The notes beneath the pieces are model-generated. The model had not been told where the DNA came from and searched no databases. It saw nothing but the letters and a program-made list of their open reading frames with translations. A program made the position numbers and the translations under genes. A stretch of DNA of 64,000 nt, from the NCBI GenBank assembly GCA_024679065.1, contig JAGIQG010000016.1:14074001-14138000 (forward strand), read 5' to 3'. The stretch's first letter is position 1; every line of letters begins with the position of its first letter. Shown piece by piece: positions 820 to 63,073 of this stretch. The stretch is from Sphyrna mokarran (Eukaryota).

Positions 820-855
820 AATGCTCTACCTTGAAAGACGCACTTGCTGAAAAGA
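820..855 (+). CDS. Coiled-coil microexon 1 (36 nt, phase 1-1): (E)CSTLKDALAEK
   Basis: ctattttctttcattacag|AATGCTCT...GAAAAGA|gtgagc; open frame; joins next exon as AAT (N). Confidence 0.8.
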
Positions 856-1081
856 GTGAGCTCCAAGAGTATACCGTGTGAAAACGCATGCCTATAATTG
901 ATATCAACTCAATGCAAAATACCTTGCAATAGTTGTATATGCAATTCCTTGTCATACAAATTTTAACATAATTTATTATTTAGACTACAGTTGATCAACT
1001 GAATAAAACTTTCGAATTTGACGAAAAATCAAATCATTCAACTGCTACAATAATTGCTGTTCACCTTTCCTCCTCGGCCAG

Positions 1082-1108
1082 ATAACGCCTTGTCTAAAAA
1101 AGAAAAAG
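1082..1108 (+). CDS. Coiled-coil microexon 2 (27 nt): NNALSKKEK
   Basis: cacctttcctcctcggccag|ATAACGCC...GAAAAAG|gtagga; KEK ending shared with exons at 17846 and 42675. Confidence 0.8.
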
Positions 1109-2475
1109 GTAGGAGTGGCACGACATATCAGCGAGTGTTACTCAGTATCTAGTGTTGTTGTTCTATTAATGATACACTCTCCCTGTTTATATGCTATGTC
1201 ATGTTTTATCATCCATGTAATAATGTATTTTATATTGACTTGTTTTAAGTTTGCGTCTGAACAATTGTTGCTGTGCATATTTACGGTTGTTTTATCTGTG
1301 CAAGCTTAATTTATTTTTGTCTTTCGTAGTTGTATATGTTGTATCATCAGTTGAATTCCCTGCAGTATCCCTGAAATATTGAGAAACTCGGATGATTTTG
1401 CAACATCTTTCACAAAATATTTAATAGGGTGCTCTCCGAATAATTTGATAGTAAGTTTTATCCAAGAGCCAACCAAGGAACAGTTGAAACTATGCAAGAC
1501 AGGGTTATGAAGATCACAATGTGATTGAATTTCCCATAGTTGGAAGTAAGGCATTATACATCAAAGTTTAGAACTTTAATTCTGAAAGAGGACTCAGCTG
1601 AGCACAAGAACGTGCACGTGGCTACAATGACGCATCAAACATTCTAAGAAATAGACAAGCAACGATGCAACTGCAGACATGTTAAGGAATACTACGGAAA
1701 AGCAGATATATCAAGTAAAAGAATCAAAGCTGCTGAATCGAGAATGCCGTGAGACTATAAAAGTAGTAATCATAATGTCGTTTAAGGCAGAGGCAACGGG
1801 AAGTTGTTTTCTGTAACCTGAAAGTTAGCCTTTAGATCTCCTTTCTTCTAAGAAAAACAATTAAATTAGTGGATTTGAAGATTTTTAAGGCAAGCGTGAA
1901 TAGTGAGTTACTGTTTTTGAAGGTTACAGTCAGATTAGAAATAACCAGAGTGTCACGACAGCTTCTAGCAGCTGGATGGGCTGCTGGTGATCCTAATTCG
2001 CATGTGGAGGCACAAATAAATAAATGTTTTAAACTGATTTCTGCTTATACAAAGGCACACTTGCGTATACATACTCTAATAAGAGAATGCATAGAGCAAA
2101 TTTACACAGACAAATATATAGCTAAATTTCCCATTAGGACATATAGAGAATCAGAAAATAACAGACAAATACCCCCTGATAAATAGTTAGGTCGATGGGT
2201 GTATGGCTGGATGGGTGGACGGACGGACGGATAAGTAGACGACCTATAGTGTCGATCATGTATAAATCTAGAGCTCCGTAACAAGGTATTGAACAAATTA
2301 AACAGTCCATCTTGAACAGCGAATTCTGAATTTAGTTTGGCGTCCCGGTGATGGGAAATGACCAGGAGGAGCTGTCAGCATTCGTCCAATTTAATGAATG
2401 GTGTACATGCAAATTCACGTTCAGCGGAATATAAGATAAGTATTCTTAACTATTGATTAAACACAATTATTTTAG

Positions 2476-2502
2476 AACTCAGGAGATGTGCTGAACAAGG
2501 CT
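2476..2502 (+). CDS. Coiled-coil microexon 3 (27 nt): ELRRCAEQG
   Basis: attattttag|AACTCAGG...CAAGGCT|gtaagt; consensus donor; in frame with neighbours. Confidence 0.75.
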
Positions 2503-2569
2503 GTAAGTAAGAAATTATCAGTTTGTTTTATTCTTGTTTTAAGCAAAAGAAAAAAAAAATGCGGGGAAG

Positions 2570-60449: not shown

Positions 60450-61320
60450 GTGACATTATTGTACTTTTGAAAGTTTTTCTTTCAAATTATGTCCTCTGAA
60501 GTTGTAAACAGGCCTCTTTCAGTTTCGATTTCTATTTGTTCTCCAGCTGTCTAAAGAAGTCATTTTATTGCTACTTCACATGTGTTTTGTTTATTTATAC
60601 TACGGCCTGAGTTACTTTTTGGGATTCGTTTTATGCCCCTGCATTGTCAGGAGGAAAAGTGGTGGGCAGGTCAGGTGACATGAGCTCTTCCTTTTTCATT
60701 TTAAGCTTTTCTTTAGTTTCAGAAAGGTCATTAAGCTAAAAGAGATCTCCTATTCTCCATGGTTTTGGAAATTCTGCTGGTTAGCTGAAAGCAAGTTCCA
60801 TGCTTACCTGGAGAAACGAATCCGATGTTGTTGGCTTGACCAAATTCTCTCTCTTTGGTGTTCTGAGAAGCTGTTCTGACATCACTCTGTTCTGTGTGTA
60901 TCAAGAAGGTTGGTGGTAGTGATACGCTGAGAAGTCAGGGTTTTACTTCTTAAATCAAAGTATTAAATTCCTGTATCACGTTAACATTAGTACTTGTTGT
61001 GTTAAACCTCTGAAAGTTTCTTTCTGTTTATGGGAAATTTCTTCTTTTGCAGAATCTTAGACGTAATTGTAAAGGGTTAAACGTTATAGAGGAAGATTTG
61101 ATTTGTTTATAATTGATAAAGATTTTTACTAATATTCTTACTATATATGATCACTCTATTCTTAAATAAATATTGTTTGATAAATCTTCCTTGTGGGTTA
61201 TTTAAATCATAGCTGAGGTGAACTATATCATGCTTATCCTAACCATATTCAAGGTGTAAAACTTATGATCCAGGCAGGCTCCATTAAACAGTTCAGAGTT
61301 TTTGACCTGAACCATAACCA
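60450..61320 (+). mobile_element. Possible solo LTR
   Basis: TG start (tgtgaca), internal AATAAA near 61165, end resembling ...ccataac(c)a; no target-site duplication verified. Confidence 0.3.
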
Positions 61321-61344
61321 TGTTGAAACACGCATTGAAAATAG

Positions 61345-62745
61345 AAACAGCAATGAGCTAATCGGCACTTTGAGTCTGCTGCACCTTTCATTTTGGTCAT
61401 GTTGATCGTTGAATTCAATATCCTGAATTCACCATCCCCCCATATCGCTTGGTCTCTTTAGTCCGAAGAGCAATAGCAATATTCAATTTTGAAATCATAC
61501 AAAAATTAGGTTCTGACTACTTCATGCTGCAGTGAATACCACAGATTCGCCGCTCTCTGTGCCAAGTTATTTCTCCCCACCTGAGACATAAAAGGTTTTC
61601 CCCATAATGCTATGACCACCAGTCCTGTACTTTCTCACCACTAGGAATGTTTTTTTTCTGAATTGACCCTGTCTAATTCTTAGAATTATATATGACTTTA
61701 TGAAGTCCCTTCTCTCTCCTCTAAACTCCAATAACTACAATCCTAACTGACTTAAGCCCTCATATGAAAGTCCTGCCATTCTAGTGGTCAGCCTGGTAAA
61801 CCACGGCACCATCTCTGCAGCAGGAACATCTTTCCTCAGGTAAGAACACTGTAACTGCACATGATATGCAGGTGTAGTCTCACCAACGTTCTATATATTT
61901 ACAGGAGAATATCCCTTTCCTGTACTCATATGGTACTGCAATGGGGGTGAAAGTACCACTTCCCTCAGTTGCAGCCTACTGCACCTGTATGATTCCTTTC
62001 AGAAACTGATGCACGAGGACAGCACTGAGTATACAACATTCAATTTACTCCTACTCAAATCATAATCTTCCTTCTGATTTTTGCTATCAAAGTTGATCAC
62101 CTCACATTTATTCACAATCTAATGCATCTACCACGCATACACTCACTCAAACATTCTTTTCAAATCACGCTGAAGCATCTCTGCATCCTCCTCACAGCTC
62201 ACTCTTCAATCCAACATTGTGTGAGGTGCAAATTTGGATATAATGCATTTATTTTCCTCTTCAAACTCATACTGATCGTGTGGTAACGCACTAGCTATTG
62301 CCTGCCAAACAGAGAAATAGTCATTTATTTCAACTCTACGATTCCTGTCTGCTAACTGACTTTTTATCCATCTCGACCCACCATCTGCTCTCCCGTGCAC
62401 CTTTACTTCATTAATAATCTTTTCTGTGGGACCTTGGCTAAGGACTTCTAAAAGACTAAATAAACCAATTGACCGGTTCTCCCTGGTCATCTCTGCTCAT
62501 TACGCCTAGCAACAGAGAATCGCTCTATGTAGATCTGTCAAGTATGATTTCCGTTTTGGAAATTCCTGCTGACTTTGTCAGATTACACAGCTATTTTCCA
62601 AATCTGTGCTATGATACCCTTCGTGATGTACTTCTGCAAATTCCCCTGCTTTCGACGTTAGGCTCACTAATCGCAGCCTCCCTTTTAGAAAGCAGGCTTA
62701 CATTCGCTTTCCTCCAACCTACAGGAACCATTCTTCAGTACAAAT
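61345..62745 (-). mobile_element. Decayed CR1 LINE (RT to 3' end)
   Basis: Minus ORF KIINEVKVHG...RWIKSQLADRNRRVEIND...KCIISKFA; tail atagaaacagcaatgagc. Confidence 0.78.
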
Positions 62746-63037
62746 AATTATTTTAATTAAGTATCTTCAATTTCATGCATAGGCTACTTCAGACTGAACA
62801 ATAGCACATTAATAACATAAGCTTAACAAATAGATAACCGTCTTGTGTAGGATTTGAACAATATGCAGCCATTGCTGCTATGGCGAATATATGAAATGTT
62901 TTATGATTTAAACTGATTTTGCAAACACGATAACTTGTGAAAATGACTTAATATAGAAAGTGCACTTCTGTATATTCTATTCCTGCGATTTATGCAAATA
63001 ACGTCCTGATTTTTCCTTCAACATTTTCTTTCCTCAG

Positions 63038-63073
63038 AAATCGAAAACGTCAAAAAATTGGTCAGCGAACTCG
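63038..63073 (+). CDS. Coiled-coil microexon 19 (36 nt): EIENVKKLVSEL; gene continues beyond the window
   Basis: acattttctttcctcag|AAATCGAA...GAACTCG|gtgagt. Confidence 0.88.

Follow-up and report, generated by a model that had tools for sequence, protein, structure and literature searches.

A microexon array in the genome of the hammerhead Sphyrna mokarran, probably the middle of a very large gene for a coiled-coil rod with a C-terminal B30.2 domain

An array of symmetric microexons

We analyzed a stretch of 64,000 nucleotides (nt) from the hammerhead Sphyrna mokarran (genome G000, 2.77 Gb; assembly GCA_024679065.1), positions 14,074,001 to 14,138,000 of contig JAGIQG010000016.1 (here C668), which we call the window and which carries an array of very small exons that probably form the middle part of a single gene (the window gene). 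A splice-site scan of the plus strand found 19 segments (eight 36-nt, ten 27-nt, and a single 18-nt) that total 576 nt, span positions 820 to 63073 in window numbering (used below for exons) and make up 0.9% of the window. All 19 have AG/GT borders and phase 1, and once joined they contain no stops in one frame, compared with 20 and 12 in the other two. The scan thereby reproduced the exon counts, total length, span, splice borders, phase, and stop-free frame proposed by the first-pass annotation, which was made from the letters of the window alone, and the measured coding share agrees with its estimate of about 1%. Its statement that 14 of the 18 codons split by junctions are Glu holds for acidic residues but not for Glu itself, as there are 12 Glu and 2 Asp codons, with one each of Asn, Ala, Lys, and Gln.

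The 36-nt exons, of 12 residues, are found at positions 820 to 855, 8305 to 8340, 28666 to 28701, 34147 to 34182, 42036 to 42071, 48914 to 48949, 53729 to 53764, and 63038 to 63073. Those of 27 nt are at 1082 to 1108, 4681 to 4707, 17846 to 17872, 19757 to 19783, 22683 to 22709, 30577 to 30603, 37574 to 37600, 42675 to 42701, 49466 to 49492, and 58295 to 58321, and the 18-nt exon is at 29453 to 29470. Every one of these plus-strand, phase-1 calls is based on the splice-site scan and the open joined frame; the exon at 19757 (leave-one-out score of 12.1) belongs to a subtype ending in Cys. Both ends of the window on this strand (1 to 819 and 63074 to 64000) read as intron, and the array carries on upstream and downstream, respectively. 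Many fragments of LINE-like reverse transcriptase and endonuclease, some with frames of 400 to 850 codons, were recognized by eye in the introns (L001 to L020), and a C-rich run of ~90 bases lies in the intron at 6507 to 6597.

The role of chance was evaluated with generic splice matrices, untrained on these exons, using the other lengths from 12 to 60 nt as the control. On the plus strand of the window there were eight candidates at 27 nt and seven at 36 nt versus a mean of 0.55 (maximum of 3) per other length, and the minus strand gave none of 27 nt and two of 36 nt. When 304 kb were considered, the plus strand had 40 candidates at 27 nt and 36 at 36 nt versus a mean of 4.2 (maximum of 10) per other length, and the minus strand had four and three. 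As sequence features, the 19 microexons of the window are confirmed as real and beyond chance.

Extent of the array and its terminal exon

The array occupies the whole of the 264 kb first examined around the window. An exon model trained on this region found, in a held-out flank of 40 kb, eight further plus-strand exons with scores of 21 to 35, and the entire minus strand gave one match, at 12.9. When exon length was left free and the matrices were trained on these exons, the scan yielded 96 candidates on the plus strand (27 nt in 45 cases and 36 nt in 36) versus 12 on the minus strand. Within 298.8 kb we retained 90 exons (49 of 27 nt, 38 of 36 nt, two of 18 nt, and one of 24 nt), with a coding share of 0.9% and a median intron of 2.8 kb. 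Upstream of the window there are 31 exons in 120 kb, three more at C668:13,805,991 to 13,823,846 and two pattern matches at 13.830 and 13.852 Mb, while downstream there are 46, six of them at 14.30 to 14.32 Mb and the last one, of 27 nt, at C668:14,318,086. A total of 101 microexons of 18 to 36 nt were thus seen on C668 over at least 515 kb (the 90 in 298.8 kb, the six at 14.30 to 14.32 Mb, the three at 13.806 to 13.824 Mb, and the two pattern matches), a count that leaves out 260 kb, namely, 88 kb at the 5′ end, 130 kb at 13.824 to 13.954 Mb, and 42 kb at 14,258,001 to 14,300,000. Judging from the sequence, the full gene would have about 120 to 155 symmetric phase-1 microexons, and the window would represent about one-eighth of it, from its middle part. 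Single exon calls can be wrong, because one upstream 27-nt candidate, at window numbering −91624, proved to be repeat derived and was dropped before the count of 90. The repeat element occurs in three copies (window numbering −91624, −67341, and −51481), each supplying a 27-nt pseudo-exon flanked by acceptable splice sites.

At the 3′ end, the last 27-nt exon is followed by a phase-1 acceptor and a terminal exon of 172 codons (C668:14,320,311 to 14,320,831, plus strand), and no plus-strand microexon was found within 9 kb past it. Its 172-amino-acid product is a B30.2/PRY-SPRY domain (Pfam SPRY, E value of 2.4e-15; PRY, only 0.049). A profile of the family B30.2 domains (see below) matched BTN3A1 best among PDB sequences (E value of 3e-33), followed by TRIM21 (1e-28). 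A fold search returned BTN3A1 and TRIM7; the AlphaFold model of the B30.2 on which it was based, of low confidence (pLDDT of 58), served only for this purpose.

A coiled coil in register with its exons

When joined, the 90 exons encode 916 residues without a single stop, rich in Lys, Glu, and Leu and with only one Pro. A pair of 36 and 27 nt corresponds to 21 residues (12 + 9), i.e., three heptads, and the two lengths alternate in 68 of 86 cases versus 42.8 expected. Hydrophobic periodicity peaks at 3.5, with a local power of 0.93 versus 0.32 ± 0.06 for shuffles of exon order (none of 300 shuffles reached 0.93), so that the heptad register of these 90 exons is preserved by their genomic order. 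Exons resemble one another most at codon position 2 and least at position 3 (identities of 0.55/0.40/0.34 and 0.48/0.41/0.37 for positions 2/1/3). The closest exon pairs are 69 to 85% identical, with flanks at the background level (~0.49), and none of the 359 self-matches in the array region covers an exon. We read the microexons, from these patterns, as old duplicates maintained by selection.

The g-e′ pairs counted in 24 canonical modules were attractive in 23 cases versus six repulsive, a predicted charge pattern that suits a parallel homodimer. Five 27-nt exons end in Cys, the one at window position 19757 and those at window numbering −83048, −56448, −39334, and −23960, and in the upstream half of the array this subtype returns at intervals of a few modules. 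These exons may act as interchain clasps or mark breaks in the register.

Paralogues in the same genome

To find paralogues, we searched the genome with the B30.2 of the window gene, scoring the best 150 of 194 candidates, and obtained at least eight related B30.2 exons, including that of the window gene. Six are close paralogues (35 to 40% identity, E value of at most 2.5e-36), five of them on C668, at 8.558 Mb (minus), 11.338 Mb (plus), 11.879 Mb (11,879,157, plus), 11.926 Mb (11,925,604, minus), and 13.716 Mb (plus), and one on C1548, at 101.418 Mb (minus). The genes ending at 11,879,157 and 11,925,604 are arranged tail to tail, with 46 kb between them. The seventh paralogue (L034; C1548:99,103,312 to 99,103,824, minus) has an internal TGA near its end and is possibly truncated or decaying. 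An in-frame phase-1 acceptor precedes all seven. The exon at 13.716 Mb bounds the window gene on its 5′ side and places the gene start between C668:13,716,600 and 13,804,000; among the candidates scored, no B30.2 exon was found between 13.716 and 14.320 Mb.

A pattern built for the 36-nt exon gave 40 matches genome-wide versus five for the control. Of these, 25 precede a family B30.2 exon by no more than ~0.6 Mb on the same strand (six of the 25 in the training region), four are clustered at C1548:100.96 to 101.09 Mb, and 11 are scattered. Eighteen matches at other C668 and C1548 loci showed an open reading when inspected by eye. The 27-nt pattern gave 18 matches versus eight for the control; of the 18, the training region contains nine and the other clusters four. 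Altogether, six of the eight family B30.2 exons have microexon matches upstream on the same strand. The family link of the other two, at 11.926 and 101.418 Mb, comes from their B30.2 and their catshark relatives.

The four clustered matches on C1548 (100,964,990 to 101,090,989, minus) are ~1.9 Mb from the nearest downstream family B30.2 among those scored, at 99.10 Mb, and could belong either to a gene of ~2 Mb, to a member devoid of B30.2, or to one whose domain was missed. Three minus-strand matches at C113:26,186,712, C1104:96,439,468, and C1548:76,006,878 are similar to each other and unlike the microexon-B30.2 family, and they probably represent a 36-nt exon of another set of paralogous genes.

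Relatives in other cartilaginous fishes

The profile of the seven family B30.2 exons was run against 1.84 billion proteins. The best single-domain scores came from catshark, little skate, electric ray, basking shark, and elephant shark, with epaulette shark lower, so that homologues were found in six other chondrichthyans, elephant shark among them. The corresponding RefSeq models are XP_042192744.1 (named “nuclear-pore anchor-like”) and XP_042191566-8 in elephant shark, XP_038672306/8/9 and XP_038668997 in catshark, XP_055510696 in skate, XP_069775384-90 in electric ray, XP_078422387 in basking shark, and XP_060706632 in epaulette shark. Several members carry TRIM39-, TRIM58-, or TRIM69-like names. 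In a tree of 50 B30.2 rows, eight exons of the hammerhead genome and nine database proteins (eight of them chondrichthyan) form a clade of 17 rows with a support of 100/99. The hammerhead's own butyrophilin, the butyrophilin-type rows of elephant shark, reedfish, and bichir, and the sampled TRIMs all fall outside it, whereas the RefSeq models listed above belong to the B30.2 clade of the window gene. Chimaeras and elasmobranchs split ~420 million years ago (PMC6238376).

The relatives also share the design of the rod. One elephant shark member has 1,697 amino acids, and the 12 + 9 module, trained on the exons of the window gene, fits its coil with z scores of 7.6 and 4.1, as well as those of skate (7.0), electric ray (5.8), and catshark (4.9), that is, five of the six family coil segments tested (z of 4.1 to 7.6), versus −0.4 to 2.8 for 19 TRIM coils. 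Four pairs of RefSeq isoforms from these relatives differ by single blocks of exactly 9, 9, 9, and 6 residues, and two comparisons with an older elephant shark model also show a 7-residue block, which suggests indirectly that microexons are spliced as cassettes there.

A word-seeded protein search with the B30.2 of the window gene gave 120 matches, nearly all to frog TRIMs at ~30% identity, and no close shark orthologue among proteins of 302 to 2000 amino acids. Of 7998 candidates scored against a profile of the exon peptides, the scaffold protein itself was the sole match. The N-terminal 340 amino acids of the elephant shark model gave one chance match only in the hammerhead genome, and an ESM Atlas search with its N-terminal part returned no usable match.

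Searches for an N-terminal domain

The 5′ 88 kb of the window gene (C668:13,716,600 to 13,804,000) lie outside the sequence read, so that the Ig, RING, and B-box negatives below no more than lean against such domains in it. At C668:8 to 14.4 Mb, we found neither butyrophilin IgV (76 of 76 candidates scored) nor butyrophilin IgC (C2-set_3; 88 of 88), and none of V-set, C2-set_2, B-box, or RING among the best 150 of 1261, 289, 325, and 391 candidates, respectively. PYRIN (PYD; all nine candidates scored) and CARD (all 48) were not found on C668. The IgV and IgC searches readily recovered canonical IgV-IgC-B30.2 genes on C1548. By Pfam, Ig, RING, and B-box are absent from all seven database members, SPRY being the sole domain above the cutoff. 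The elephant shark model starts with a hydrophobic and then a basic segment, which could be a membrane anchor. The skate and epaulette shark models also have hydrophobic starts, but we gave these no weight, because in-frame acceptor tracts read alike and the likely cause is read-through of a pyrimidine tract.

Canonical butyrophilin-like genes (IgV, IgC, and B30.2) are found at C1548:91 to 113 Mb among more than 100 PRY matches, mostly of the TRIM type, and the same interval contains two to three members of the microexon-B30.2 family. In the 3 kb preceding the B30.2 exon of a canonical butyrophilin, we saw no clear small exon. A big cluster of V-set and C2-set Ig lies at C668:0.99 to 6.5 Mb, 2 to 7 Mb from the family cluster.

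A proposed giant rod with a B30.2 cap

The hidden gene with a coiled coil of 36 + 27 modules that the first-pass annotation envisaged is supported by the heptad register and by an array that ends in B30.2, and its proposal to look for B30.2, lectin, or other domains in the downstream flank was borne out by the terminal exon. As for the upstream counterpart it suggested (signal peptide, IgV, and transmembrane exons), butyrophilin IgV and IgC were not found among the 76 and 88 candidates scored at C668:8 to 14.4 Mb, the 5′ 88 kb of the window gene lying outside the sequence read. Our preferred explanation, to which we give a probability of roughly 0.58, is that the window comes from the middle of a single, very large chondrichthyan gene whose product has a microexon-encoded coiled-coil rod, a C-terminal B30.2, and an N terminus without recognizable Ig, RING, or B-box and would act as a cytoplasmic tether or spacer. 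Concerning its affiliation, the best reading is an ancient, poorly annotated chondrichthyan family, BG-like in exon design, with membership in the butyrophilins unproven.

Under this explanation, ~120 to 155 microexons would encode a rod of ~1,200 to 1,600 residues capped by B30.2. The array would have grown by tandem duplication of the 36 + 27 pair without frameshifts, because every exon is symmetric, and exon skipping would tune the length of the rod, as the RefSeq isoforms of the relatives suggest. At ~0.15 nm per residue, a parallel homodimer would be 130 to 230 nm long and would therefore bring two B30.2 heads together at one tip. A long cytoplasmic tether or spacer seems the most likely job: by analogy with TRIMs and BTN3A, the B30.2 would bind a specific protein or small ligand, and the rod would hold it far from an N-terminal anchor or, as reported for the BG tail “zipper protein,” tie it to the cytoskeleton. 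An immune or cytoskeletal role would be plausible. The weakest step concerns the N terminus, which would probably be short and devoid of recognizable Ig, RING, or B-box, whether or not it carries a membrane anchor. More tentatively, and with odds somewhat short of even, the family might be a third, undescribed vertebrate branch of B30.2 proteins beside TRIMs and butyrophilins, at least ~420 million years old, so far seen only in cartilaginous fishes and lacking an Ig or RING/B-box head. Its rods, up to ~200 nm and tuned in steps of 9 and 12 residues by exon duplication and cassette splicing, might serve as molecular rulers of adjustable length, each holding a B30.2 sensor at a defined distance inside the cell.

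Several points weigh against the preferred explanation. The joining of the microexons into one transcript is inferred from sequence, and a gene boundary could hide in the 260 kb outside the sequence read. The negatives for V-set, C2-set_2, B-box, and RING cover the best 150 candidates each, and a Pfam PRY search of the genome, which gave nothing on C668 among the best 150 of 208 candidates, missed the family's own B30.2 exons, which means that divergent domains escape such searches easily. The two family B30.2 exons at 11.926 and 101.418 Mb (of eight) have no upstream pattern match. The tree was midpoint rooted, and resemblance to the family guided the choice of its rows. The coil of epaulette shark (z of 1.7, 69 residues) and the first 330 residues of the elephant shark model (z of 1.6) do not fit the module, and the database members are automated models, inconsistently named, mostly short (175 to 460 amino acids), and probably 5′ incomplete. 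In addition, the g-e′ count is based on only three positions of one repeated module, and the ligand and localization proposed above are predictions.

Among the alternatives, the one to be taken most seriously, although we consider it unlikely, is a membrane receptor of the butyrophilin/BG type with a divergent Ig and a transmembrane helix hidden in the 5′ interval, the microexons being a giant cytoplasmic heptad tail. Short heptad exons precede B30.2 in butyrophilins, as far as the layout is given in PMC6790196, BG tails are built from 13 to 36 small exons (in the sections of PMC4046983 on these tails), BTN3A1 is the best PDB match (3e-33 versus 1e-28 for TRIM21), and the 1,697-residue elephant shark member starts hydrophobic and then basic. 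However, the complete sets of IgV (76) and IgC (88) candidates gave nothing near the six C668 genes, despite the success of the same queries on C1548, none of the seven database members has an Ig, the B30.2 clade is apart from the sampled butyrophilins, and the elephant shark N terminus has no match in the hammerhead genome. A true TRIM (RING-B-box-coiled coil-B30.2) with a coil expanded by microexon duplication would account for the TRIM39-, TRIM58-, and TRIM69-like names in RefSeq and would be in keeping with the abundance of TRIM-B30.2 genes on C1548, but this is considerably less probable, given that RING and B-box were missing from seven of seven members and from the best 150 candidates of each at C668:8 to 14.4 Mb, that TRIM coils do not fit the 12 + 9 module, and that the clade is also separate from the sampled TRIMs.

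The integrity of the gene itself can be questioned in two ways. The array could be divided among two or more genes, or used as alternative subsets of exons, with real proteins much shorter than the rod proposed here. There are no pattern matches at C668:13.852 to 13.980 Mb (mostly sequence outside that read), exons are sparse at 13.80 to 13.82 Mb, most RefSeq members have 175 to 460 amino acids, and none of the B30.2 exons scored lies close downstream of the array at C1548:100.96 to 101.09 Mb. We nevertheless regard such a division as improbable, since none of the best 150 of 194 candidates places a B30.2 exon between 13.716 and 14.320 Mb, the heptad register holds across genomic order, and the 1,697-residue elephant shark model combines the same module with B30.2. 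The other doubt, that the segments look like spliced exons by chance, are debris of repeats, or belong to a dead gene, is suggested by the repeat-derived upstream 27-nt candidate with its three similar copies and by the internal TGA in the B30.2 of one paralogue. It is very hard to reconcile with two exon lengths being enriched nine- to tenfold on a single strand, a stop-free reading of 916 residues, the codon-position signature between exons, the intact B30.2 of the window gene, and homologues across Chondrichthyes, and we give it hardly any weight.

Comparison with known systems

TRIM coils are antiparallel. Class IV TRIMs (TRIM39/btr-like, RBCC-B30.2) resemble the window gene in having a coiled coil followed by B30.2 and in forming multigene clusters, but in the window gene no RING or B-box was found among the candidates scored, the coil is several times longer and made of a different module, and its charges would suit parallel chains. 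The C-terminal exons of TRIMs have been gained, lost, and shuffled, as summarized in the pertinent part of PMC3137616. B30.2 is the ligand-binding domain of TRIMs and BTN3A1 in the relevant passages of PMC8813856 and PMC6790196. A CD23/C-type-lectin neck, considered because of a resemblance to 36 + 27 = 63 nt, was rejected once the B30.2 was found.

The first-pass annotation suggested a BG- or butyrophilin-like tail. The B30.2 and the heptad exons are in favor of it, while the exon sizes are not those of BG, no butyrophilin Ig was found, and the B30.2 clade is separate. Similarly to chicken BG, as far as described in PMC4046983, the window gene makes a long coil from many tiny exons and belongs to a tandem multigene family that is poorly annotated by automatic methods. 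The BG genes, in the sections of PMC4046983 and PMC8813856 devoted to their structure, have an IgV, a transmembrane helix, and long tails from 13 to 36 small exons per gene, of 21 or 24 nt, with no B30.2, and a BG tail regulates actin-myosin interaction (PMC4046983). In contrast, the window gene uses exons of 36 and 27 nt, at least 101 of them over 515 kb, and has a terminal B30.2 and no Ig that we could find. With butyrophilins, whose layout in PMC6790196 places short heptad exons after the transmembrane exon and before B30.2, it shares such exons directly before a terminal B30.2, besides BTN3A1 being the best PDB match. Butyrophilins have a few heptad exons and an IgV-IgC-transmembrane organization, whereas the window gene has more than 100 exons for its coil, a B30.2 that belongs to a separate clade, and, among the candidates scored, no butyrophilin Ig in its neighborhood. 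Since it differs from BG on two counts and from butyrophilins in the tree, we do not file it under BG, butyrophilins, or TRIMs. Ordinary butyrophilins have been reported in cartilaginous fishes, and the available text of PMC12841164 mentions nothing like the microexon-B30.2 family there; nor did full-text literature searches, which most subscription papers lie outside, turn up a title or abstract opening that describes the family.

These genes expose a multigene family that standard annotation splits into fragments under unrelated names. They are also an extreme case of splicing, with more than 100 exons of 18 to 36 nt, a median intron of 2.8 kb, and a heptad register kept by exon order, and the exon maps make the window gene directly testable by long-read RNA. 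Finally, they bear on the kinship of TRIMs, butyrophilins, and BG, for the design of BG and the B30.2 head of butyrophilins and TRIMs appear combined here in cartilaginous fishes.

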